20,000 nt of DNA, from contig NC_057749.1 in assembly GCF_004010195.1 (NCBI RefSeq), positions 9,573,443 to 9,593,442 of the forward strand. Reading direction: 5' to 3'. Source of the stretch: Chiloscyllium plagiosum (lineage: Eukaryota). Positions within the stretch are counted from its first letter, which is position 1. Each line of letters starts with the position of its first letter. Under the pieces are notes generated by a model. It had not been told where the DNA came from. It did no database searches and was given only the letters and a program-made list of their open reading frames with translations. The translations under genes and the position numbers were made by a program. Below are positions 1 to 20,000 of this stretch, piece by piece.

Positions 1-66
1 TCTGCCATTTCTGCCTGACCTGCTGCATTTGTATGTTTTTATTTCAGATCTCCAACAACTGCAGTG
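1..66 (+). mobile_element. Degenerate Penelope-like (PLE) terminal-repeat 3' fragment
   Basis: ctgcctgacctgctg...tttcagatctccaacaactgcagt resembles the 3' part of the repeat at 4343-4406. Confidence 0.55.
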
Positions 67-71
67 TTGTG

Positions 72-390
72 AAAACCAAAAGAACTGCGGATGCTGGAAA
101 TCAGAAACAAAAACAGAAGTTGCTGGAAAAGCTGAGCAGGTCTGACAGCATTGTTGGAGAGAAATCAATAGTTACATCCTCAGAACTGATGGGAGTGAGG
201 AAAATGTCGCTTAATATTCAGAAGATAGGGTGGGGGGAGGATGTAAGGAGTAAATGATAGGTGGTGATAGAGCCCAAAGAGAGAAAGGACAGTTGAACAG
301 ACAAAGGAGTGGATAACGATCTGGCTAGGAGGGTGAGTATCTATTAATGCGAACTATTAGTGGCTAACAATGGGTTTTGTGTAATAGCAG
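72..390 (-). mobile_element. PLE 3' UTR/terminal-repeat fragment, hammerhead stem II deleted
   Basis: Co-linear similarity to 5045-5313 (aaaacagaa.ttgctggaaaagct.agca.gtctg, agagcccaaagagaga, acaaaggagtg, attagtgg.t.acaa), which is attached to the GIY-YIG ORF remnant. Confidence 0.8.
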
Positions 391-1069: not shown

Positions 1070-1545
1070 ATGGATAGAGCAAATGTTGAAAACTGTTTAC
1101 TGTTGGCAGGAGAGTCAATAACCAGAGGACAATGTGGTTAAGGCAAAAATGAGGACTGCAGATGCTGGAGATCAGAGACTGGATTAGAGTGGTGCTGGAA
1201 AAGCACAGCAGGTCAGGCAGTATCCGAGGACCAGGAAAATCGATGTTTCAGGCAAAAGCCCTTCATCAACGTGGTTAAGGTTACTGGCAAAGAAACTAGT
1301 GGTGATGTGAGGCAAAGACCTATCTACGCAGCCCAGCTGTACTAGCCTGGAATTCGCTGCCTGGGATGGCAGTGCAAGCAGATTCAATACTACGTTTTCA
1401 AAAGGGAACTAAATATTTAACACTGACTCGTTTGTAGGGCTACAGAGAAAGAGCAGGGGAATGGGACTAATTAGATAGCTCTTGCAAAGTTGTGGCTCAA
1501 TGGGCTGAATGGCCACAGTCTGTGATATAAAGTTCTATGATTCTG
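1070..1545 (+). mobile_element. Degenerate CR1-type LINE 3' fragment interrupted by a PLE mini-insert
   Basis: ggagagtcaataaccagaggaca encodes the GES.TRG motif of the CR1 ORF2 C-terminus; tail atgggctgaatggcc...ttctatgattct. Confidence 0.7.
1144..1266 (-). mobile_element. Short PLE-terminal-repeat insert with hammerhead remnant; 14-bp TSD
   Basis: TSD caatgtggttaagg (1130-1143) / caacgtggttaagg (1267-1280). Minus strand 1268-1242 reads TGATGA-A-GGGC-TTTT-GCCT-GAAAC-ATC. Confidence 0.85.
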
Positions 1546-1714
1546 CACTGAGTTTAGGATGTGTGTCAATCTCTGAGATTTGCTTAGCTAGCCAATGTGA
1601 CTGCTCTTCTTCTTGTTGCAAGCTCAGTGTTTTGCATTGCTCCCAGTTTGGAAAGATTGAGAAACAAGGTGAGACAGGACAAGAAGTATCGGGGTTAGAC
1701 ACCTGGAAACATTG

Positions 1715-1960
1715 AAAAGGCATTCACCCCTTTGATTCTGCTCCCCAATTCAATATGATCATCCAACTCAGTCCCCTGGTCCCACTTTCCCTCTTTGATC
1801 CCTTTGGCCCTAAGAACTACATCAAACTCTTTCCTGAAAACTTTCAATGTTTTGTCTTCAGTCACTTTGTGTGACAGAAAGTTCCACAGGCTCATCGCTC
1901 TTGGGTGACAAAATTTCTCCTCATCTCAGTCCTAGGTGCCTTAACCCTGTGACCCCTGGT
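1715..1960 (-). mobile_element. CR1-type LINE 3' fragment
   Basis: ORF 1695-1895 (SLWNFLSHKVTEDKTLKVFRKEFD) resembles the CR1 ORF2 C-terminus, as in 15439-15753. Confidence 0.75.
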
Positions 1961-1964
1961 CCGG

Positions 1965-2130
1965 CCATGTTACTGTGGGTGTGGAGTTACAGATACGTCT
2001 GGTGATGGATTCCAGATTTCCTTCCCGAAAGGACTTTGGATGTGGGTATTGTCAGCAACTGGTGATAGTCCCAGTGTCACCGTCACTGGGATGAGCTTTA
2101 TATATTCATTTAAATTTAAACCAGCCTGGG
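1965..2130 (-). mobile_element. Degenerate SINE fragment, same family as 2945-3190 and 10615-10800
   Basis: Shares ctgtgggt.tggagt.aca and agatttccttccc.aaaggac with 3049-3110. Confidence 0.55.
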
Positions 2131-2213
2131 AAAGGTTTGCCCTCATCTGCCTGTATTAATTGACTCACTGAGCCATGGCTGTTTTAGAGCAGAGTGAAGG
2201 GAGAACGATGCTA

Positions 2214-2424
2214 GATGTATGGAATCAGCTACCAGAGGAAGTGGTGGAAACTGGTACAATTGCAACATTTAAGTGGCATCTGGATGGGTATATGATTAGG
2301 AAGGGTTTGGAGGGATATGGGCCGGTTGCTGGCAGGTGGGACTAGATTGAGTTGGGATATCTGGACGGCATGAACGGGTTGGACCAAAGGGTCAGTTTCC
2401 ATGCTGTACATCTCTATGACTCTA
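2214..2424 (+). mobile_element. HER1/CR1 LINE 3' end, 5'-truncated
   Basis: Close match to the reverse complement of 19172-19380; ends in ctctatgactctat. Confidence 0.9.
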
Positions 2425-2469
2425 TTCCAGCTCCAGGACCTGATTCACATGTCAACTCTTCACACACAT

Positions 2470-2550
2470 GATGTGGGAGCTTGCTGTGTGTAAATTAACT
2501 GCTGCATTTCCTTCAGACAACCGTGACTACACTTCAAAGTAATTTCACAA
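2470..2550 (+). mobile_element. Deu-domain SINE (SacSINE/AmnSINE-like) 3' fragment
   Basis: tgtgggagcttgctgtg...gtgactacacttcaaag, also at 9684-9727 and 16893-16950. Confidence 0.6.
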
Positions 2551-2862
2551 GTAAACGGCCTCTGTTGATCATCTTGGATCTCTGCCTGCACAGTTAAATG
2601 CTGGGTTATGTTTCTGTCAGACTTATAGTCACTTCTGACTTTTCACAACCTTAAAATGAAAGGGACCTCCGTCAGTGCTTCCAAAATCTAAGGTTGAAGC
2701 ACATTGTTCAGTAGCAGCCTTATACCGTGGCCTTCTGTTCACAGCACTGTTACACAGAAGTACTCTTACCAACATGATGGCTGCCGTGGTATCACATTGC
2801 AGTATTTTGCTGCATCAATTGGCTGCGTTCGCGAGAATCAGGCTCAGCAGCTAAGATGTTCT

Positions 2863-2877
2863 TCACAACAGAGCAGT
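2863..2877 (-). CDS. Candidate last coding exon (TALL*) of DRAM/PGAP2-like gene
   Basis: Acceptor ctccccctactcag at 2878; phase 0 gives ACT GCT CTG TTG TGA; possible donor TTG|GTAAGA at 2769. No homology support for this exon. Confidence 0.3.
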   Translation of the reverse strand, partial: TALL

Positions 2878-2944
2878 CTGAGTAGGGGGAGCTTGGCGAT
2901 TTGTGTTTGTCTTTTCTCCTTCGTGGGATAAGTGTGTTGTTGTG

Positions 2945-3190
2945 GAGGCCAGCGTTTGGTGCCCATCCCTAATTGTCCTTGAACTGAGTGGCTTGAACTG
3001 AACTGCTGCATCATTCCAGGGGCTTACCCTTGAGAGTTAGACACATTGCTGTGGGTCTGGAGTCACATGTAGGTCTGGACATGGATCTGAGATTTCCTTC
3101 CCTAAAGGACATCGGTGAGTCAGAGGGGGTGTTTACACAATCAGTGATAGTTTCATGGTCATCACTACTGAGGTTAGCTTTATAAAGTCC
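2945..3190 (-). mobile_element. SINE 3' part sharing its tail with the LINE at 17750-18280
   Basis: tgcccatccctaattg is approximately the reverse complement of caattagggatgg at 18216-18228; the body overlaps 10615-10670. Confidence 0.65.
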
Positions 3191-3385
3191 CATGGCATCA
3201 TGGAGGGTTTTACAACAGTGATCGTGTCAATGTGAGTGCCACTATGAAGGGTTGCTTTGAAGAGATGGACACAATACTAGGCTGCTATTTTAAAATATAC
3301 ATTTAATATATATTTATGTTATATTGGACCTTAGGTTCCATTTCCCAGATTGTTAGCTTGGACCTCAGAACTATTACTACTGAAA

Positions 3386-3849
3386 TATTTACCAGGATGT
3401 TACCGAAGATTGGAGAGTTTGAGTTAGAAGGAGAGATCGGATCCTATTCCCCTGGAGAGTAGGAACTGAGGGGTGACCTTATAGTGGCTTGTAAAATCAT
3501 GAGAGGCATAGATAGGGTAGATAGCCAACAGCTTTTCCCCAGGGTAGGGGAGTCTAAAACTAGATGTCATAGGCTTAACCTGAGAGGGGAGAGCTACCAA
3601 CAGGGTCCAGAAAGGCAATTTTTTTCTCACAGAAGGTGGTGAGAGGGTGTGTGGAATGGGCTGCCAGAGTAGTAAAGCGAGTAAAATTTGTCATATAAGA
3701 AACATTTGGACAGGTTTGTGGATGGGATGGGTATGAAGGGACATGGACCAAACCCAGGCAAATGGGACAAGATTAATTGTGAAAACTGGATGGCAAGGGC
3801 ATGTTGGGTGGAAGGGCCTGTTTCCATGTTGTAGGCTTCTATGAGTCTA
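3386..3849 (+). mobile_element. CR1/HER1-type LINE 3' fragment, frameshifted
   Basis: Encodes FTRMLP, LRGDLIVACKIMRGIDRVD and FFSQKVVR motifs matching ORF 19251-19979; tail ttctatgagtcta. Confidence 0.9.
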
Positions 3850-4257
3850 CTACACCTGCCACGACAGCAGGGAGAGCCCTGCTAAGATGATCAATGCCTC
3901 TGGGAGAGAGTAAAATGGGTGGGATGTGGAGAGTTGGAAGATGCGATTCCTCTCAAAACAGAATTGAGTTTTTTTTTGCAAAATGACTCACAAGTAACAA
4001 TCTGGGGGACAGAAATATATTTGATAAAAGTCATCAAACGATCGGTGCATAGACAGTTAAATAAAGTCATTGTCCATTGTTAAGGAGTAGAAAGGTCACT
4101 GAATGTGAGGCCATACAATTGGCACCTGTCTTCAAAAACAAGAGATCAAGCTGTTCCACATCTCCCAGGTCCTGGCCACTTACTTTCAAAGTGTAATTTA
4201 CCACAATACTCCACAATATCTCCTTCACATCACTTGGCCTGGGAAGGATGGAATGGG

Positions 4258-4420
4258 CTGAAAATGTGTTGCTGGAAAAGCGCAGCAGGATTCCTGAAGA
4301 AGGGCTTATGCCCGAAACGTCGATTCTCCTGCTCCTTGGATGCTGCCTGACCTGCTGCGCTTTTCCAGCAACACATTTTCAGCTCTGATCTCCAGCATCT
4401 GCAGTCCTCACTTTCTCTTC
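4258..4420 (+). mobile_element. Fold-back PLE mini-element with intact hammerhead core; 14-bp perfect TSD
   Basis: TSD aaggatggaatggg at 4244-4257 and 4421-4434; perfect 33-bp inverted repeat 4257-4289 / 4351-4383. Confidence 0.9.
4290..4326 (+). ncRNA. Minimal type I hammerhead ribozyme motif, core intact
   Basis: CTGAAGA (4294-4300)-A-GGGC-TTAT-GCCC-GAAA-C-GTC (4319-4321); palindromic ACGT at helix III, as known for PLE minimal hammerheads; predicted cut after C4321. Confidence 0.8.
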
Positions 4421-4990
4421 AAGGATGGAATGGGGCTTATTTGGCAGACATGAATGGAAGAGTTCCAATAATTTCTTCTGTAAATGACAGAGAGCCAGTG
4501 TTTTGTTTGGGGCGGGAAGGATTCTATTTAATGGGACTTAATCTGAGCAGGAACACTCGGAAAATATCTATAATACTTTAGCAATCCCTTAATAAGTTTT
4601 ATGATTTTCTTTTCCTGGAGATGACGACAGGCCTGAAATTTCCACTTGAGCAGCTTCCAAATTTTGCTCCCAATTCATTTGGCCCCTCCATGTCTGACAC
4701 AGCTACAATGATGTCAAATGAGGACATGAGCTGGAATCAGCTGTGGCTATCTACTCACCCACTATCATTCACTCTATGACATGGGGCTAGTTCCTCCTCC
4801 AATCTGGCCCTGAAAGCTCTGAATCATTGTCAGACAGGCCATCAGGAATTGCAGAAACTCTAATCCCCCTTTGCTCCAACTCTGATTTCACTTTGATTCA
4901 AGCAACACTTAGAAGACATCAAGTAAATCCTGCTTTAGGGAACCATTCAAACACTGACTAGAAAAGTGTGAGACCTTAACGAATTCTCAC

Positions 4991-5014
4991 CACACCCTGG
5001 CCTTCTGTCCCCCT
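4991..5014 (-). CDS. Candidate 24-nt micro-exon (RGTEGQGV, phase 0-0)
   Basis: Acceptor tgacgttttgtgtttccag, donor GTG|GTGAGA; frame-preserving. Confidence 0.35.
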
Positions 5015-5330
5015 CTGGAAACACAAAACGTCATCAATGCAGGAAGAAAAACAGAAATTGCTGGAAAAGCTCAGCAAGTCTGGCAGCATCCAGACCTGGG
5101 GAGAAAGCAGAGTTCATGTTTTGGGTGCAGTGACCCTTCCTCAGAGCTGATGGGGTGGTGGGAGGTAAGAGAGTAAACTGTGGGTGGAAATAGAGCCCAA
5201 AGAGAGAGAGAGAACAGTTGGACAAAGGAGTGATTAAAGGTCAGTCTGGGGGAATGAATAGTTGCTAATGGGGAGTATTAGTGGTTGACAACAGGATAGT
5301 GTGTAGTAGCAGACTATGTGATAACAAGGC

Positions 5331-5548
5331 GAAAGTGGGTCCTGCAGATGCTGGAGATTAGAGTGGTGCTGGAAAAGCACAGCAGGTCAGGCAACATCCA
5401 AGGAGCAGGAAAATCGACGTTTTGGGCAAAGGCCCTTCATCAGGAATGATGAAGCCATTCCCCGATGAAGGGCTTTAGCCCGAAACGTCAATTTTCCTAC
5501 TCCTCCACTGCTGCCTGCCTTGCTGTGCTTTTCCAGCGCCACTCTAAT
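5331..5548. mobile_element. Palindromic head-to-head double-hammerhead PLE mini-element; 17-bp perfect TSD
   Basis: TSD ctatgtgataacaaggc at 5314-5330 and 5549-5565; inverted arms 5355-5448 / 5456-5550; cores at 5443-5416 (-, CTGATGA...AAAACGTC) and 5462-5489 (+, CCGATGA...GAAACGTC). Confidence 0.9.
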
Positions 5549-6030
5549 CTATGTGATAACAAGGCCTGGTGTGTGGGGCTGGGGTAAGGACATGGGCGAA
5601 GGTGTCTCAGGTGAACATTGTTGAACTTGATATTGAGTCCAGAAGGCTGGAGAGTTCCCAAGTAGAAGATGAGGTGCTGTTTTTCCAGTTTGTTTTGAGC
5701 TTCAATGGAACACTGCAGTGAGTCTGAGACTGAGATATTGGACAGGGAGCAGGGTGGTGTGTTGAAGTGGCAGGCAATGGAAGCTCAGGGTCTTTTTTGC
5801 CAACAGAACGTGGGCGTTCTGCAACATGGTCGCACGGTCTACACTTTGTTTTCCCAATGTAGAGGAGACCACATTGTGAGCAGCAAATGCAGTAGACTAG
5901 ATTGTGGGAAGTGCAGATAAAGCGCTGTTTCAACTGGAAGGTGTGCCTGGGGCATAGATGCTGAGGAGGGAGGAAGTAAACAGACAAGTGTTACACCTTC
6001 TGCAATTGCAGGGGAAGGTGTCATGGGGTT

Positions 6031-6053
6031 GTGGTGGTGGTGGTGGTGGTGGT
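6031..6053 (+). repeat. (GTG)7 microsatellite inside the PLE
   Basis: Read directly; explains the poly-H/P/T/V runs in overlapping ORFs. Confidence 0.95.
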
Positions 6054-6228
6054 TGGGGAGGAAAGAGGGGGGTGTTGCTTGGGTGGTGAGGAGGTGTTTT
6101 GGAAGGGAAGGAGAAGTGGACCAAGGTGTCCCAGAGGGAACAATCCCTGTGCAAGGCTGACAAAGGAAGGGAAGGTGAATGTGTGTCTGGTGGTGGCATC
6201 CCACTGGAGGTGATGGAGATGATGGCTA

Positions 6229-6327
6229 AAAATGTGTTGGCAGGTCAGGCAGCATCCAAGGAGCAGGAGAATCGACGTTTCGGGCATGAGCCCTTCTTCA
6301 GGACTCATGACTCATCACAGGACTCCT
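6229..6327 (-). mobile_element. Short PLE-terminal-repeat insert with intact hammerhead; 19-bp TSD
   Basis: TSD gtgatggagatgatggcta (6210-6228) / gtgatggagatggtggcta (6328-6346). Confidence 0.85.
6269..6306 (-). ncRNA. Minimal type I hammerhead ribozyme motif, core intact, 5-bp helix I
   Basis: Minus strand GAGTC-CTGAAGA-A-GGGC-TCAT-GCCC-GAAA-C-GTC-GATTC; GAGUC/GAUUC pair with one G-U. Confidence 0.8.
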
Positions 6328-6798
6328 GTGATGGAGATGGTGGCTAGTGATCCTCTGGATGCTGGTGGGATGGTAGGTGAGGATAGGGGGACCCTATCAC
6401 TTGTCAGAGGAAAGAGAGGGGCTAAGGGCTGAAGAGCAGGAGATGGTTGGGACCGAGCTGAGGGTCCTGTCAATTATGTTACTGGGAAATCCTTGGTTGA
6501 GGAAGATCATCAATATAGAGTTGGAATCTCAATGGGAGGGTTTTCCAGTTGGAATGTCATTGGACATTGCTGGAAACAAAAAAAAAGTCCAAATAGTCAT
6601 TCATGACATTGCTTTGGGGATTTTGCCCAACTCCTATTGGTAATGGCTAAAACATTACCATCTGATTTCCTGCAATCAAACTCCATACCCACCAGAACTT
6701 AAAAGTAAGCTCTGTGCTTCAGTTCATTGAATAATGTCTTCCTGAAACAAACAGACCAGGAAGCTAAAGATGCATTAGAAGTATATTTCAAATTACAT

Positions 6799-7255
6799 TG
6801 GAGTCAGAAGTTTGTGGGTTCCGTCTCAGAGACCTGAATGCCAAATCAGATCCAATACTCCAGCACAGTACTGGAGGAGTGCTGCATTGTCAGAGCTGTC
6901 ATCATTTGGATAAGACATTAGACTAAAAACCCTGTCTGCCATTACAGGCTTAAAAAGGTCTTTCAGAGATGAGTAGAGGATTATTACTGGAGTCCTGCCT
7001 TATATTTAACCCTCAATCAACATCAATAAAAGCAAATTTCTGATCATTGTCATCTGGTTGATTATGTACATGAGCAATAAAGCGAACTGCAGATGCAGGA
7101 AATTTAACACAAACTGCAAGTTCAGGAGAAACTCAGCTGTTTGTATATAGATTGGTTTATCAGCCTCCTACATTACAGCAATGACTACATCTCAAAATGA
7201 CTTCAGGGCTTCGGAATGCGTTGAGGTCATGAACCAAGCAAATGGAAATGCTTTC
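6799..7255 (+). mobile_element. Deu-domain SINE (SacSINE-like), interrupted by a PLE terminal fragment at about 7075-7138
   Basis: cagtactggaggagtgctgcattgtcagag and ccctgtctgcc Deu-like block; similar to 9305-9785 and 16630-17030. Confidence 0.7.
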
Positions 7256-7342
7256 TTTGGAAATAGTTTCATAAACAAATGGAATACAAAATAATATTCA
7301 AGTTGGTGATAGCCACAAAGCTGTACTACTGCTGAACACAAC

Positions 7343-7408
7343 CTTTTGCCCCTCGTACGCAGCATGAAGACTCGATTGGAACACATCCGAGAGACATAAT
7401 GTTATAAA
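7343..7408 (-). CDS. Candidate exon, 66 nt, phase 0-0: FITLCLSDVFQSSLHAAYEGQK
   Basis: Acceptor gtcacgttcctag; donor AAG|GTTGTG (weak); CpG retained; completes the E-Y-x15-D last-TM pattern of Frag1/DRAM proteins. Confidence 0.6.
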
Positions 7409-7689
7409 CTAGGAACGTGACAATAATGTAGGAAGTGGAACACTGTTAGCCTACTGAGCAAACAGCTGGACCTGCCATAACCCCCCAAAGTCAAGAAGAC
7501 TATTGGCTTAGTGATATCTACTTCATCTATGTCAGAATCCTGGCCTCCACAAAGTTGGGTTGAAGTGTGGTGCAACTGTCAGTCCAAAATAGAATCATGG
7601 CCACACAACATTGTAAACTAAGTAACTCATGGCAAGAGCTGCTACAGCTTCATCTCGATATTCCCCATCCCATGGATGTCTTCATCTAC

Positions 7690-8150
7690 CTCCAATACTT
7701 TCCCTCAACCTGAAGTCCTCCCCCAGGCCTTTTACCTGCACTTGACTTGTTCATTGACAATTATCGACGCGACATTGGTCACGTTAATTTCTCTGCCTCT
7801 GCGCCCCTTACCTATTCAAATGTATCTCCCTCTGAACTGACTGCACTTTGCACTCCTCGATCCAACCCTGTGAACAAGGGTAGTGCTGTTGTAGTCCCCC
7901 GTACTGATCTCAACGTTGTGCAGGCTGAGCGTAGCTCTCAGATACCTCCTCCTATTCCCTCCTGGACCATGACCCCACCATCAAGCATCACGCCATTGCG
8001 TCCACAACGGTCACTAAACCCATCTCATTCTGCCTCCCAACTCATAGTCCCCCAACCCCATACATCCTGCTCTACCTTCTTCCCGGAATTCAGCACAGGA
8101 CTGCCCAGGAAGACCCAAAGTTTATACCTGTTCCTGCCACACCAAACCCA
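7690..8150 (+). mobile_element. Penelope-like element internal fragment (pre-RT region)
   Basis: ORF 7747-8175 SNVSPSELTAL...NKGSAVVVPRTDL resembles a degenerate PLE DKG motif; frameshifted afterwards. Confidence 0.8.
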
Positions 8151-8439
8151 TCTGAGTCAGCAACTCCAAGTTTGAGCCTTAGCCCAGGACTCGATGGCCA
8201 AGGATGGTGCACTTGGACCAAGGTCAAACAGCTTGAGGGTTAACCTGTAAATCCTTCCAATACACACAATAATGGCAGACAGGGAGAGAAGGGGAAATTC
8301 CTGCTCAGCTCTGAGATGGATAGTCGCAGCCTCTACCATCACTATCCCTAGCTTCAGAGTGCAGGACCGATGTAATAGACCATGCTGTCAGAGTGGTTTG
8401 GTCCCCCTATGTGAACGACAGGGCAGAATGGTGTACCCT

Positions 8440-8511
8440 GATTCATATCATATTAAATGGCAGCGCAGGCTCAAGAAGCTGAATTGCTTATTCCTGCTCC
8501 TAGTTCTTATG
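8440..8511 (+). mobile_element. CR1-type 3' tail
   Basis: aatggcagcgcaggctcaagaagctgaattg...cctgctcctagttcttatg, similar to 15725-15815. Confidence 0.6.
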
Positions 8512-8532
8512 CTGTCTGTCAACTAATGTACA

Positions 8533-8704
8533 AAGTCAGAAGTCACACAACACCAGGTTATGGTCCAAAAAGTTTACTTGGAATCACAGACTTTCGGAAT
8601 ATACCTTCGTCGCTTGACAAAGGAGCAGCGCTCCAAAAACTTGTGATTTCCTGTTCAACTTGTGATTTTGTCCACCCCAGTCCAACACCAGCACTTCCAC
8701 ATCA
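8533..8704 (+). mobile_element. Second-family fold-back PLE-type mini-element with decayed hammerheads; 13-bp TSD
   Basis: TSD caactaatgtaca (8520-8532) / caactaatatgca (8705-8717); + core TTGACAA-A-GGAGC-AGC-GCTCC-AAAA (8614-8638); - remnant CGACGAAGG...CCGAAAG (8611-8590); aatcaca/tgtgatt inverted. Confidence 0.65.
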
Positions 8705-9304
8705 CAACTAATATGCACACACATTTAAAATTATGTAAATACCTAGCTTTAAAAAAAAGCATTTTTATGGTCACTAACCATCATTTATTCAAGTAAGATT
8801 GACTAAAATGTGGAACATATACAAATGAGGACATGTAGAAAGTGCAAGTTAATAATTTACAAAAGGAATGCGTTCCCATGTTAATCAAATCCAGTTCCAT
8901 TGCAAGCACAGGGCCAGATTTGAACTCCGTGTGAGTGAATCAGTGTTTTGCATTACTTGAAGTCTAGCACAACATGCTCAACAGTGTGTTTCCTCCTGGA
9001 AACTGGCAGGAAGGGAGATTTTGCTGACTGGCACCATCAGTGGAATTGTATCCAATTCCATAAATAGCTCTACCTGTGGTCATCATAGTGCCTGCCAACA
9101 GATTGCTCATTCTGACGCACCTTGGTTGCAGATATGTCAATAGGTGTTCATGCAATGCTTGCTAACATTGGTTGATGTAACGGGAATGAGCTGCTTCTGT
9201 TTTTGCTGAATGGACCTAGAATAGTTTAGCTTGATTCATTTCATTTCTATCAGCCTCCCGCTCTCTCTCTTGCACTTGCCAACTGGGAAAACTGTCATTG
9301 TAAC

Positions 9305-9785
9305 TGTCGGCTCAACCAGTGGCACTCCCACCTCTCAGTCACAAGGCTCCAGGTTCAAGTCCTGCTCCTGGGCTTGAGTGCAAACATCAAGGCCAGTGCT
9401 CCAGTGCAGTTGCAAAGAGGGAGTGCCATATTGTTGGAGATGCTGCCCATAGGTGAGAGATTAAACTGAGGCTCTGTTGGACTGTTTAGGTGGTTGTAAA
9501 AGATTCCGTGACACTATTCTGAAGAAAAAGGTGGTAGTCTCCTCTGTGTCCTGGCCAATACATGACACACAATATACCTACAACTACCACAACCAGCACC
9601 TGAGCTACAAAATCTTTACGCATACTTTGGCCAATATATATCCCTGAATCACCATCGCAAACACAGATCTTCACATCACTGTTTGTGGGAGCTCACTGTG
9701 TGCAACAACAGTGATCTCACTTCAAAAGTACTGCATTGGCTACAAGTGCTTTAAGATGGTGGTGACCGTGTTAAATGCAAGAAGA
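9305..9785 (+). mobile_element. Deu-domain tRNA-headed SINE (SacSINE-like)
   Basis: B box ggttcaagtcc (9352-9362), Deu-like block ctccagtgcagt...gagggagtgcc, 3' tgtgggag...cacttcaaaagta. Confidence 0.75.
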
Positions 9786-9943
9786 TTAAGAAGGTTTTCT
9801 TTGGAAACAATATTCCCTTAAACATAACGAATATCTGCTCTTATTAAATTTTACCTCTTCATCCAAGGTTTCGGTCACCGGTCCTAATATCTCCTATTTT
9901 GACTCAATGTTAAATTTTGTACGATCGCACTCCCGTGAAGAGC

Positions 9944-10266
9944 GGGACGGTACGGTGGCTCAGTGGTTAGCACAGCTGCCTCACAGCACCAGGGACCTGA
10001 GTTCAATTCCCGCCTGTCTGTGTGGAGTTTGCACATTCTCCCCGTGTCTGCGTGGGTTTCCTCCGGGTGTTCCAGTTTCCTGCCACACTCCAAAGATGTG
10101 CAGATTAGGTGAATTGGCCCATGTTAAATTGCCCATGGTGTTAGGTGCGTTAGTCAGAGGTAAATATAGGGTAGGGGAATGAGTTTGGGTGGGTTACTCT
10201 TCAGAAAGGCGGTGTGGACTTGTTGGGCCGAAGGGCCTGTTTCTACACTGTAGAGAATCTAATCTA
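9944..10266 (+). mobile_element. HE1-type tRNA-derived SINE, full length
   Basis: A box tggctcagtgg, B box gagttcaattccc, core tgtgtggagtttgcacattctccccgtgtctgcgtgggtttcc, LINE-derived tail and (aatct)n. Confidence 0.92.
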
Positions 10267-10614
10267 ACCGAAAGGGCCTTTTTACTGGCTTTCAATATAA
10301 ATGCAAGTTGTTACTGTTGTTTAGTACTTCCTTATTAATGTCTTTTTTAAAAATCTGGACATTTATGTCCCTCTTCAAATCTGGAATAGATTATATGACG
10401 TGGTCGAGCAATGTGCCATTTTTCATTATCTGAGGAGATGTGGGAAGCATTCTGAATAGCACAGCATTCATCCTTATCCTCCTCTTAGCATTTGAGCTGG
10501 GCCTGGCTGGTCATGCAATTCTCCACAACCTCTCCTCTCAGTTCTGAGAACATGGGACTTTCTTCATCTGGTATTATTTCAACTAATCCAGACTCCAACA
10601 ACAAATGCTCTTCT

Positions 10615-10800
10615 TAGTGAATCAGCTGGGTTTTCCACCAACAATGGAGTCATGGTTATCATTCGACTCTTAATTCGGGATATTTATTGAATTCAAATTC
10701 CACCATCTGGCATGGTGAGATTTGAATCTGGCTCCCAAGACATTACCTGGGTTTCTGGATTAACAGACCAGTGATAATACCACCAGGCCATCACTTCCCC
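10615..10800 (-). mobile_element. tRNA-headed SINE 5' half
   Basis: Minus strand tggcctggtggtattatcactgg (A box) ... gattcaaatctc (B-box-like); body overlaps 3115-3165. Confidence 0.65.
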
Positions 10801-10867
10801 TTTACAGCTTATGTTCATTTAAGGGTGATCTCAATAATCAATTGAGATAGAAAGGAATTGGACCTAC

Positions 10868-10951
10868 TGAAAGATGCGTTGAAGTCGTGCAATACTCAAA
10901 CCAAGCCGTGACTATATAATCTCCTTTCTCTTCATTTTTGAGCCTCTCATA
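10868..10951 (-). CDS. Candidate exon, 84 nt, phase 0-0: YERLKNEEKGDYIVTAWFEYCTTSTHLS
   Basis: Strong acceptor tgttttcctttag, donor TCA|GTAGGT; only phase 0 is open; AxxEYxxxxTHxSF resembles PGAP2 AxxEYxxxxTNxAF (recalled). Confidence 0.65.
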
Positions 10952-11303
10952 CTAAAGGAAAACATGCTGAGTTCCTCTTCTGACTGATGTTTTGATATCA
11001 CTATACAAAGACTTCGGTGGTTCCTCTAGACAGTGGGGGCATGAAGTGTTTTATGAGTGGTTTAGTAACTGCAGCTTCCTTGGCTAAACTTTGACATGTT
11101 TGATGACAAAGAAACAAGAGCACTGTGTGTTAAAAACCCTTGTTCACCAGTTTGCCTGTATCCCACAAAGGGGCTGTGTCTGAGCAACTAGAACAATGTG
11201 CATTTCTGTCGTGATTTCGAAAGAATATATTGGCTTTGGAGGGAGTACAAATTAGGATGACCAAAATGATTCCTGGACTTCAGGAGTTATGTGAGGAGAT
11301 TGT

Positions 11304-11603
11304 GGGCGGCACGGTGGCACAGTGGTTAGCACTGCTGCCTCACAGTGCCAGAGACCCGGGTTCAATTCCCGCCTCAGGCGACTGACTGTGTGGAGTTTGC
11401 ATGTTCTCCCCGTGTCTGCGTGGGTTTCCTCCGGGTGCTCCGGTTTCCTCCCACAGTCACAAAGATGTGCAGGTCATGTTAAATTGCCCGTAGTGTTAGA
11501 TAAGGGGTAAATGTAGGAGTATGGGTGGGTTATGCTTCGGCGGGTCGGTGTGGACTTGTTGGGCCGAAGGGCCTGTTTCCACACTGTAATGTAATCTAAT
11601 CTA
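11304..11603 (+). mobile_element. HE1-type SINE, young, nested in CR1; TSD attgt
   Basis: gggcggcacggtggcacagtggttagc...ggttcaattccc; CpG-rich; attgt at 11299-11303 and 11604-11608. Confidence 0.92.
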
Positions 11604-11705
11604 ATTGTACAAATTAGGCCGGTTTTCTCTGGAAATTACACGGTTAAGGAGGTGATCTGATTGACATCTTCAAGATAGTAACAGGAAAAGACAGTGTAGA
11701 TAAAG

Positions 11706-11800
11706 TTACAAAAACAGAAATTACTGGAAAAACTCAGTACATCCAGCAGCATCTGTGTAGAGAAAGCAGAGTTAACATTTTGGGTTCAGTAAATCTTCAC
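11706..11800 (-). mobile_element. PLE terminal-repeat insert truncated within the hammerhead core
   Basis: Matches 5045-5140; flanked by ataaag (11700-11705 / 11801-11806); CR1 sequence resumes on both sides. Confidence 0.75.
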
Positions 11801-12609
11801 ATAAAGAAAAACTATTTCCACTGGTTCGAGATTCAAGAACTAGGGGCATAGTTTAAGAACGAGGGCCAGACCATTCAGGAGACATATTCAGAAGCTCAGA
11901 ACTGTCTTCCACAAACAGCAGTGGATGCAGGACTTTAAATCTGAGATAGGTAGCAAGCCTGAGGGGCTGAATGACCTGTACCTATGACTTTCACCGAATG
12001 GAAAAGCTCAAGCTATTTCACAGGAGATACATTGCATAGATATTTGACAGCCAGCTGTTCACTGCAATGTCAGGAGAGTTCATCTAAAGCACGTAACAGT
12101 TAATGTAAGATTTCGTGCAGTGGAGTATCTGATCTAAGCTCCCACAAATAACAATCTGGTAATTATTGCAAACAGTAAAGGTTCTAAAACAGAGGTTAAT
12201 GTTGAAGCTGCATTAAGTGCCACTTGCTCTAATGTCTCACAGTCCAGGGTGGAGAATTGAGCAGTCCAGTCAAGGAGGAGTCCCATAGGGTATCATGATG
12301 GAAACAGACAGATCTTTCTGGCTTGTCAGAGTAACAGGTACCTATATTTATCATATGTTACATGTTATGTATAGACTCATGAGTGGCCTATCACTGCTAA
12401 TTAAATAGGTCATCAGACAACATAAAAGTGGTAGCGATCCTACCTCTGTCAGGAGGTTTAAGTCTAATCTGTTCCAGAGGTGTGCCATATCTGAGCAAGT
12501 CGATTAAAAACAAAATCCAGAAAGGATTGATGTGCCCTTATGTGCAGTCACAATGTCCCTACCTTTGATGCAAAAGACCCAAGTTCAAGTCCCACCTGTT
12601 CCACATCTA

Positions 12610-14018: not shown

Positions 14019-14335
14019 GATGGCACAGTGGTTAGTGCTGCTGCTTCAGATTGCCAGGGTCCTGAGCAACTGACTGTGTGGAGTTTGCACATTCTCCCTG
14101 CGTCCATGTGGGTTTCCTCCGATTTTTCCAGTTTCCTCCCACTATCCAAAGATGTGTAGGTTAGGTGGATTGCCATGCTAAATTGCCCATAGTGTCCAGG
14201 ATTGTGCAGGCTAGGTGAATTAGCCATGGGAAATATGGAGTTACAGGGATTGTGTAGGGGTGGTGGGTCTGGGTGGTTCGGTGCGGACTCGATGGGCTGA
14301 ATGGTCTACTTCCACACTGTAGGGATTCTGATTCT
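14019..14335 (+). mobile_element. HE1-like SINE, B box deleted
   Basis: tggcacagtggttagtgctgctg, HE1 core, tail ccacactgtagggattctgattcta. Confidence 0.85.
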
Positions 14336-18973: not shown

Positions 18974-19170
18974 GGTGGCTCAGTGGTTAGCACTGCCGCC
19001 TCACAGCACCAGGGTCCCAGGTTCGATTCCAGCCTCGGATGACTGTCTGTGTGGGGTTTGCATGTTCTCCCCGTGTCTGCGTGGGTTTGCTCCGGTTTCC
19101 TCCCACAGCACACAAAAATGTGCAGGCCAGGTGAATTGGCCACGCTAAATTGCCCACAGTGCTAGGTACA
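18974..19170 (+). mobile_element. HE1-type SINE 5' part, cut off by the LINE
   Basis: A box tggctcagtgg, B box ggttcgattcc, HE1 core. Confidence 0.88.
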
Positions 19171-19171
19171 T

Positions 19172-20000
19172 TAGAGTCATAGAGATGTACAGCATGGAAA
19201 CAGACACTTCGGTCCAACCCGTTCATGCCGACCAGATATCCCAACCCAATCTAGTCCCACCTGCCAGCACCCGGCCCATATCCCTCAAAACCCTTCCTAT
19301 TCATATACCCATCCAAATGCCTCTTAAATGTTGCAATTGTACCAACCTCCACCACATCCTCTGGCAGCTCATTCCATACACGTACCACCCTCTGCGTGAA
19401 AAAGTTGCCCCTGAGGTCTCTTTTATATCTTTGCCCTCTCACCCTAACCCTATGCCCTCTAGTTCTGGACACCCCGACCCCAAGACCTTGTCTATTTATC
19501 CTATCCATGCCCCTCATAATTTTGTAAACCTCTATAAGGTCACCCCTCAGCCTCCGACACTCCAGGGAAAACAGCCCCTGCCTGTTCAGCCTCTCCCTGT
19601 AGTTCAGATCCACCAACCGTGGCAACATCCTTGTAAATGTTTTCTGAACCCTTTCAAGTTTCACAACATCTTTCCGATAGGAAGGAGACCAGAATTGCGC
19701 ACAATATTCCAACAGTGGCTTAACCAATGTGCTGTACAGCCGCAACATGACCTCCCAACTTCTGTACTCAATACTCTGACCAATAAAGGAAAGCATACCA
19801 AACACCGCCTTCACTATCCTATCTACCTGCGACTCTACTTTCAAGATGCTATGAATCTGCACTCCAAGGTCTCTTTGTTCAGCAACACTCCCTAGGACCT
19901 TACCATTAAGTATATAAGTCCTGCTAAGATTTGCTTTCCCAAAATGCAGCACCTCGCATTTATCTGAATTAAACTCCATCTGCCACTTCTCAGCCCATTG
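19172..20000 (-). mobile_element. HER1/CR1 LINE 3' part, young; continues beyond the window
   Basis: Open ORF2 C-terminus; 3' tail ctctatgactcta. Confidence 0.95.
19251..20000 (-). CDS. CR1-clade LINE ORF2 (reverse transcriptase C-terminal region), partial
   Basis: QWAEKWQMEFNSDKCEVLHFG...RDLGV...LVKPLLEYCAQFWSP...LRGDLIEVYKIM...FFTQRVVRVWNELP with no stop over about 250 codons. Confidence 0.9.
   Translation of the reverse strand, partial: QWAEKWQMEFNSDKCEVLHFGKANLSRTYILNGKVLGSVAEQRDLGVQIHSILKVESQVDRIVKAVFGMLSFIGQSIEYRSWEVMLRLYSTLVKPLLEYCAQFWSPSYRKDVVKLERVQKTFTRMLPRLVDLNYRERLNRQGLFSLECRRLRGDLIEVYKIMRGMDRINRQGLGVGVSRTRGHRVRVRGQRYKRDLRGNFFTQRVVRVWNELPEDVVEVGTIATFKRHLDGYMNRKGFEGYGPGAGRWD

Follow-up and report, generated by a model that had tools for sequence, protein, structure and literature searches.

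Short hammerhead-bearing inserts in the Chiloscyllium plagiosum genome as probable 3'-terminal insertion units of Penelope-like elements

What are the short non-coding inserts scattered through a 20,000-nucleotide stretch of the Chiloscyllium plagiosum genome (contig NC_057749.1, positions 9,573,443 to 9,593,442; hereafter the window)? The initial annotation listed six of them (1144-1266, 4258-4420, 5331-5548, 6229-6327, 8533-8704 and 11706-11800), attributed a hammerhead ribozyme motif or its remnant to each, and proposed that the hammerhead-bearing terminus of a Penelope-like element (PLE) behaves here as a discrete short mobile unit. Our analysis indicates that the inserts are very probably dead-on-arrival 3'-terminal insertion units of endonuclease-positive (EN+) PLEs, belonging to at least three families (A, B and C). 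This assignment is built on direct observations, namely the anatomy of the units, their copy numbers, their target-site duplications (TSDs), their physical link to PLE open reading frames (ORFs) and a sharp 5' boundary. The eukaryotic assembly that contains the window comprises 3.56 Gb; the window itself has a GC content of 0.44 and a CpG observed/expected ratio of 0.27.

Anatomy of the inserts

Units are oriented with a 35-nt tail (CTCTGATCTCCAGCATCTGCAGTCCTCACTTTCTCC in family A) at the 3' end, and positions within them are given as d, the number of nucleotides upstream of CTGATC. The family A hammerhead, CUGAAGA-A-GGGC-UUAU-GCCC-GAAA-CGUC, occupies d92-65, with a predicted cut between d65 and d64. 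From 5' to 3', a unit consists of this minimal hammerhead, an arm of ~65 nt and, optionally, the 35-nt tail. Allowing at most two mismatches, a 27-nt tail query matched the genome 169,052 times (84,593 + 84,459 on the two strands), while the reversed control gave 0 matches. All six inserts were recovered at the positions listed above, and further copies were found at 11-65, 81-240, 5020-5330 and 7071-7108. The PLE-derived features of the window are as follows.

11..65, plus strand: decayed family-B-like PLE terminal fragment ending in the tail (BLAST to the 3' reference from locus L029, d43..-20, 70% identity), oriented tail to tail with the copy at 81..240, with a hairpin at 20-125
81..240, minus strand: decayed family-B-like PLE 3' end with part of the 3' untranslated region (3'UTR), arm and tail (d141..-23, 66% identity); has repeats D9, D10 and D19 in common with 5045-5210
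1141..1268, minus strand (insert 1144-1266): family A simple unit with tail and without inverted arm; its 5' end falls within the CUGAUGA box (d91) and both hammerhead CpGs are mutated
4257..4289, minus strand: short inverted arm (d2..35) of a 163-bp fold-back copy (inverted repeat I15)
4290..4420, plus strand: family A direct arm (d96) and 35-nt tail, with a complete minimal hammerhead at 4294-4321; TSD aaggatggaatggg
5020..5330, minus strand: family B PLE 3'UTR, hammerhead remnant and arm (repeats D8, D9, D19 and D20); the remnant starts at 5146 and reads CUGAGGA-A-GGGUC..CACCC-AAAA
5331..5548, minus strand: fold-back copy of family A inserted within the family B 3'UTR (inverted repeat I3; TSD ctatgtgataacaaggc), with direct arm and tail at 5453->5327 (d102..-34), inverted arm at 5456-5542 (d97..12) and one core mutation in each arm
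5497..6244, minus strand: frameshifted C-terminal CCHH / GIY-YIG endonuclease remnant of a PLE ORF (ORF pieces, tblastn)
6229..6327, minus strand: family A unit without tail that ends at the proximal start site, with a complete minimal hammerhead at 6301-6274 and 24 extra nucleotides on the 5' side
7071..7108, minus strand: short tail-like fragment, a severely 5'-truncated copy (repeat D10; tail motif at 7101, minus strand)
7675..8152, plus strand: separate PLE ORF fragment from the N-terminal / early reverse transcriptase (RT) region (tblastn; P0002 residues 137-306 and P0068 residues 276-435)
8533..8704, plus strand: family C fold-back copy with a tail of its own (TTTGTCCACCCCAGTCC..CACATCA) and an imperfect TSD; hammerhead remnant at 8612-8642 with four substitutions
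11706..11800, minus strand: family-B-like arm in advanced decay that retains a hammerhead relic (repeats D9 and D20)

TSDs had been claimed for five of the six inserts, and five were indeed found by direct reading of the sequence. They are perfect on both flanks of 4258-4420 (14/14) and around 5331-5548 (17/17), and nearly so around 1144-1266 (aa[t/c]gtggttaagg, 12/13 matching) and 6229-6327 (gtgatggagat[g/a]gtggcta, 18/19). The TSD of 8533-8704 is imperfect, with caactaat exact (8 bp) and ~13 bp when a single indel or mismatch is tolerated; 11706-11800 has only 6 bp and hence no convincing TSD. For family C, whose anatomy is based on the window copy together with a match table, a genome search returned 1,503 candidates of 70-82% identity, with matches on both strands.

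To place these copies in a wider context, we assembled an insertion sample from one contig by taking 72 copies in positional order, anchored on the exact tail alone. Leaving out one local duplicate (L019, of L018) and the second reading of a two-tailed copy (L022), the sample represents 70 independent insertions; two copies cut by runs of N were omitted from the tally of direct arms (n=68). TSDs were 12-20 bp long, with a median of 16 bp (n=39 of the 70). An inverted arm adjoined the direct one in 42/70 insertions (~60%), its outer end lying at d -12..+11, just short of the tail, in 32 of these 42 and including the tail in three. The 5' ends of direct arms fell at d 90-102 in 35/68 copies, with 25 shorter and 8 longer; likewise, the inner ends of inverted arms fell at d 90-103 in 25/42, only one being longer. 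In a by-catch set from other loci, 20/38 ends lay in the same hammerhead-edge interval.

Several copies betray the element from which the arms stem. Three long copies among the 70 insertions extend up into the endonuclease C-terminus, and in five loci (L012, L029, L030, L038 and L088) the arms run on into PLE 3'UTR and ORF sequence. The junction between the arms varies from copy to copy. Since the junctions vary and the arms of L012 and L030 reach into the 3'UTR, the arms are independent truncated copies and not deletions of one hairpin master. The 70 insertions thus display the signature of EN+ PLE insertion, that is, 5' truncation, an inverted 5' copy, a one-sided tail and TSDs of variable length, and the hairpin-plus-tail shapes are standard PLE insertion architecture, not the design of a separate family.

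We also considered a discrete 160-bp family, which 40 near-full-length matches to the 163-bp copy appeared to indicate. This candidate was rejected: the matches reflect query bias. Against at least 169,052 tails, the junction found in the 163-bp copy is matched exactly only 32 times, and the sampled tail-anchored copies have other junctions.

Link to Penelope-like element ORFs and the hammerhead motif

The derivation of the inserts from a hammerhead-bearing PLE terminus, as initially annotated, is supported by the gene order in the window and at other endonuclease loci. On the minus strand of the window, the endonuclease remnant (6244-5497) is followed by the 3'UTR (5330-5140), the family B hammerhead of the GGGUC/GACCC type and the arm. 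The 3'UTR is interrupted by the nested family A copy, which has its own TSD; when this insert is disregarded, the segment 5020..5330 is contiguous with the endonuclease remnant. In a tblastn search with a 931-residue protein carrying RVT_1 and GIY-YIG (P0068), residues 825-930 aligned to 5942-5626. A comparison of the window endonuclease piece with the genome gave 63,585 first-look candidates, and all of the 150 that were scored (150/150) matched at E<=2e-23.

Among 29 other endonuclease loci, ten carry a sense hammerhead downstream, nine of them at a distance of 234-545 nt; A-type (L042, L063) as well as B-type hammerheads occur among them. Arm or tail marks alone are found downstream in another ten of the 29. 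The two loci with the best-preserved ORFs (L110 and L111) have an A-type hammerhead 3' of the ORF, and in L013, L014, L029 and L038 the RT part is collinear with the endonuclease part. A search with an RT piece from L051 found 105 homologues at E<=1e-5 in sharks, rays and invertebrates; RVT_1 and GIY-YIG occur together in at least 12 of them. The closest named protein relatives of the retroelement ORFs are from carpet sharks and rays, and the atlas neighbours of the ORF are eukaryotic GIY-YIG clusters; a PDB sequence search with the decayed RT and endonuclease pieces returned nothing relevant. The order RT then GIY-YIG in one ORF, with a sense hammerhead in the terminal repeat 3' of it, is that of EN+ PLEs.

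For the hammerhead itself we used a strict descriptor of the minimal motif: CUGANGA, an optional bulge, a helix II of at least 4 bp, GAAA, a self-complementary ANNU and then H. In the window it picked out the complete motif twice, at 4294-4321 (plus strand) and 6301-6274 (minus strand), and it found 0 in each of 200 dinucleotide shuffles. A scan allowing up to six edits added remnants with four substitutions at 5460 (+), 5445 (-), 1271 (-), 5146 (-) and 8612 (+). The one at 1271 is additionally cut inside CUGA, and the one at 5146 belongs to family B and lies just beyond the six inserts. The relic in 11706-11800 was not recovered even by the scan with up to six edits. The claim of a motif or remnant in every insert therefore holds in the form of two complete motifs, three near-complete remnants and one badly decayed relic.

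The motifs share with the minimal hammerheads of PLEs a conserved CUGANGA ... GAAA core and an H at the position of cleavage. All three helix II variants that had been proposed proved real and abundant genome-wide as exact motifs. Counted with a free loop on the two strands, there are 87,506 exact GGGC/GCCC motifs of family A (43,730 + 43,776), 355 GGGUC/GACCC motifs of family B (178 + 177) and 701 GGAGC/GCUCC motifs of family C (357 + 344); reversed-pattern controls of all three gave 0 matches genome-wide, and chance therefore does not account for the motifs. The number of family A motifs bears out the very high abundance suggested earlier. Helix II is maintained by compensatory changes, and each of the three variants is preceded by CUGANGA-A, with the last base unpaired. 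There is no helix III; its place is taken by a self-complementary tetramer, ACGU in families A and B and AGCU in family C, in agreement with the description of the motif as minimal and of the dimer type. The intact family A motif contains two CpGs in a CpG-depleted genome, and its high count would accordingly point to recent amplification.

Mechanism, 5' boundary and alternative explanations

How might such units arise? The end module of a PLE RNA would comprise a minimal type-I hammerhead, ~65 nt and the 35-nt tail, the hammerhead being composed of CUGANGA, one bulged A, helix II, GAAA and a self-complementary ACGU or AGCU that replaces helix III, followed by H. By analogy with the PLE of Anolis (PMC11167929), the RT/GIY-YIG protein would nick both DNA strands 12-20 bp apart. 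Reverse transcription would then begin inside the RNA at either of two sites ~35 nt apart, so that ends with or without the tail would result, and complementary DNA (cDNA) synthesis would proceed toward the RNA 5' end. Most cDNAs would stop at the 5' edge of the hammerhead and give a unit of ~130 bp. The inverted arm, present in ~60% of insertions, would come from a further cDNA whose synthesis is primed by the opposite strand, and the two arms would be joined centrally, often at self-complementary tetramers. We infer these priming steps and any part played by the hammerhead, whose cleavage is predicted from the motif itself.

Several results weigh against the assignment of the inserts to EN+ PLE termini, or against parts of it. 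Both-strand priming and internal initiation are carried over from the lizard element and would apply to this genome by inference. The curated Pfam cut-offs were not reached by the decayed ORF pieces, with E values of 0.03-0.22 for GIY-YIG (0.22 for the window endonuclease piece) and 0.053 for RVT_1, and a GIY-YIG profile search of the genome produced one weak match in 150 scored of 14,403 candidates. None of the three marks (hammerhead, arm or tail) is found downstream in 9/29 endonuclease loci. No ORF N-terminus is present among the sampled loci, the upstream parts of L110 and L111 reading N. The Rfam hammerhead models scored no copy in the window, neither at the gathering threshold nor at E<=10, a result to be expected because the motif is devoid of helix III. 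Helix II forms in every predicted fold; the double-hammerhead dimer skeleton is foldable, with an energy that exceeds the predicted ground state of the dimer by 6.6 kcal/mol, and the fold-back copy 5331-5548 is predicted to form a -149 kcal/mol hairpin that buries the hammerhead core. These predictions fit the low activity that has been published for such motifs and are not decisive on function.

The boundary at the 5' edge of the hammerhead deserves separate consideration. It is real, and it is seen in simple copies as well as in both arms of fold-back copies; a smooth truncation curve devoid of a short-copy peak was not observed, and 5' ends instead pile up at this edge. The boundary may stem from a self-standing module RNA, from PLE transcripts that begin there or from an RT stop. 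According to the first of these explanations, the ~130-nt hammerhead-to-tail module would be a self-standing non-autonomous element, that is, a minimal PLE-dependent 'SINE' (short interspersed element) or a retrozyme relative, with source copies of its own, trans-mobilised by the PLE protein, and it would have a discrete RNA starting at the 5' edge of hammerhead helix I. We regard this explanation as possible yet doubtful. The sharp short-copy peak described above for direct arms, inverted arms and the by-catch set speaks for it, and so do three simple copies (L073, L077 and L089) in which the TSD directly adjoins the hammerhead-edge boundary. Read/contig depth, given for the two orientations, increases from ~65/77 to ~230/312 at d97 and to ~580/890 further in (~9-12 fold), and reads and contigs show a pile of loose ends with varied flanks at d96. 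Because there is no self-complementary tetramer at this boundary, the joining artefact at d64/d67 discussed below does not explain it.

Other observations speak against a module with a life of its own. The same boundary is expected if PLE messenger RNAs begin there or if the RT stops there. The variants specific to short copies that such an element might carry were looked for and not found: 36 unit-length and 9 long copies are alike at the variable sites, in a comparison of low resolution. Tandem arrays are absent from the window and from the 70 loci (the genome as a whole was not scanned for arrays), the pair L018/L019 being a local duplication. In a polyA single-cell library, which is a weak test, 94% of the RNA reads continue into unrelated flanks, in both orientations and with no preferred molecule ends; the same library gave no sign of a discrete or circular RNA and no RNA ends at the cleavage site. 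Two internal T4 tracts argue against transcription by polymerase III, for which no promoter boxes were seen on reading the sequence, and tRNA, 7SL and 5S gave no match over the units. Despite the sharp boundary, the internal polymerase III promoter and defined 5' head of a SINE were thus not found. Of the initial annotation's proposal of a discrete short mobile unit, the sharp short-copy peak stands; the units have the same variants as long copies and show neither arrays nor discrete RNA ends, and neither the 'retrozyme' nor the 'SINE-like' label is borne out.

Tentatively, and with less than even confidence, most insertions could have been templated by a discrete ~130-nt RNA reaching from the 5' edge of helix I to the PLE RT start sites. 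It would represent a minimal cis-acting PLE module present in ~10^5 copies, and be either the smallest-known PLE-dependent retroposon or run-off cDNA from a 5'-proximal module copy on the PLE messenger RNA. In either case, the end of the RNA met by the PLE RT in vivo would be located to the single base by the shark genome.

Another explanation, which we consider quite unlikely, holds that some copies were templated by RNA that had been cut in vivo by the hammerhead, leaving arm ends at the predicted site d64. Short arm ends do cluster at d 61-67 (9/41; binomial p 0.004 against a uniform spread), and symmetric head-to-head junctions centred on d64 were found at 29 sites, as opposed to 2 for d61 and 3 for d58. 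The predicted cleavage site is, however, also the middle of the palindrome TCGA, and the neighbouring palindrome ACGT (centre d67) is richer in junctions, with 47 sites as opposed to 15 at d64 under the same CpG-tolerant rule; in the by-catch set, 1/11 short ends falls in the d 61-67 interval, where 0.9 would be expected. Since the ACGT control is the richer one, the d64 cluster is attributed to arm joining at self-complementary tetramers and not to cleavage, and a cleavage footprint at d64 was rejected. The concentration of junctions on ACGT and TCGA, compared with 2-3 sites at centres that are not palindromic, suggests microhomology-guided joining of two cDNAs.

It is most improbable that the short hairpin inserts are miniature inverted-repeat transposable elements or microRNA-type hairpin genes with an incidental hammerhead-like motif: although the arms are long near-perfect inverted repeats (I3, I15) and Rfam at a permissive threshold reports MIR2646 at 4254-4386 (E 5e-4; 33.6 bits, where the gathering score is 245) and mir-980 at 5421-5484 (E 0.1), every Rfam match lies far below its gathering score, the TSDs vary between 12 and 20 bp, a tail occurs at just one end, the two arms of a copy are unequal and their junctions vary between copies, and in the five loci named above the arms extend into PLE 3'UTR and ORF sequence.

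As a separate observation, fold-back PLE hairpins such as those at 4254-4386 and 5421-5484 could pass for microRNA genes or feed small-RNA pathways. For annotation, the units account for many small 'hairpin' repeats and microRNA-precursor lookalikes in shark genomes.

Relation to known systems and other repeats

Animal non-LTR (long terminal repeat) retrozymes were reportedly described by Cervera and de la Pena in 2020, a study cited in PMC8557442. They have in common with the present units that they are non-coding, hammerhead-bearing derivatives of a PLE terminus. Retrozymes are defined by tandem repeats and circular RNAs, whereas the copies described here lie scattered, as single or fold-back units flanked by TSDs.

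Minimal hammerheads in the pseudo-LTRs of metazoan PLEs have been known since 2014 in fishes, coelacanth, amphibians and reptiles. The motifs described by Cervera and de la Pena (2014, PMC4209133) resemble the present ones in their CUGANGA and GAAA cores, in an unpaired base at the 5' end of helix II, in a short helix I, in a self-complementary tetramer that serves dimer formation in the absence of helix III, and in the existence of families with differing helix II. They are likewise mostly dispersed single motifs, 'probably related to truncated PLEs', and include opposite-strand pairs. The numbers differ: the same paper calls remarkable ~4,000 motifs in coelacanth and ~9,000 in Xenopus, compared with the 87,506 exact family A motifs counted here. 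Intact minimal hammerheads are thus about ten times as numerous in this genome as in the vertebrate cases that were published as 'remarkable'. The hosts differ as well, the present genome being of the shark type, and PMC4209133 has 0 occurrences of 'shark' or 'Callorhinchus'. Vertebrate retrozymes are argued to be PLE derivatives in a preprint which sampled one cartilaginous fish and found it positive (Li, Clavereau and Pollet 2026, bioRxiv 10.64898/2026.07.22.740005). The general idea of PLE-terminus derivatives is thus already published for other vertebrates in these two sources. Our literature search found no paper on hammerhead-bearing PLE termini in sharks specifically; where papers on the whale shark bring up Penelope, it is only as a class of repeats that has expanded in introns.

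PLE insertions are described by Craig et al. (2021, PMC8557442) as heavily 5'-truncated; their 5' end often bears a further copy that is inverted and likewise 5'-truncated, and one end has a tail of 30-40 bp. The PLE protein of Anolis cleaves and extends both DNA strands in vitro; its reverse transcription initiates internally at two sites, the tail being the sequence between them, and the adjacent hammerhead is dispensable for insertion in vitro (Frangieh et al. 2024, PMC11167929). The canonical EN+ PLE unit shares with the present copies the heavy 5' truncation, the inverted arm on the 5' side, the tail of ~35 nt mostly at one end, the two 3' ends ~35 nt apart, the hammerhead ~65-90 nt upstream of the start site and the variable TSDs. 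In contrast to the canonical unit, most copies here are cut to the last ~130 nt and have a sharp limit at the hammerhead edge, a description of which was not found in the accessible parts of PMC8557442 and PMC11167929. The ORF of the Anolis element starts inside helix II, whereas the shark modules are closed by stop codons (PMC11167929 for the former).

Tens of thousands of young insertions constitute a natural record of PLE integration that could be used to test the lizard-element model in vivo. The record covers the two 3' start sites, both-strand priming, the joining of arms at palindromic tetramers and the sharp 5' stop at the hammerhead edge, and it agrees with the sole in vitro study, that of the lizard element.

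Some further observations concern PLE sequences and other repeats. In L014 (1500-3025), a hammerhead-to-tail unit is followed by a 5'-truncated PLE ORF in the same orientation, 17 nt past the start of the tail match; the start of this ORF corresponds approximately to residue 486 in a relative of 1097 residues, and the arrangement is a partial tandem of the pseudo-LTR type. Within the decayed PLE endonuclease/linker remnant of the window lies a (GGT)n microsatellite (6035-6062). Two tandem copies of a 173-bp unit with 98% identity (333-678) adjoin the decayed family-B PLE 3' end. On contig C1, 93 of the first 100 exact tail matches, all within the first 12.7 Mb, are listed on the plus strand, with genome-wide counts equal between strands; this excess may be an effect of listing order or a local orientation bias.

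A short repeat with a tRNA-like head (GGCACGGTGGC.CAGTGGTTAGCAC..GGGTTCAATTCCCGCC) is present in four copies, at 9954-10252, 11313-11588, 14021-14321 and 18974-19290. The copies have a common 3' block ending in ..GGGCCGAAGGGCCTGTTTCCACACTGTA, and the repeat resembles a SINE family and seems to have no relation to the hammerhead units. Finally, a 216-nt inverted pair (2209-2424 / 19172-19387), 91% complementary and 16.7 kb apart, represents another dispersed repeat.

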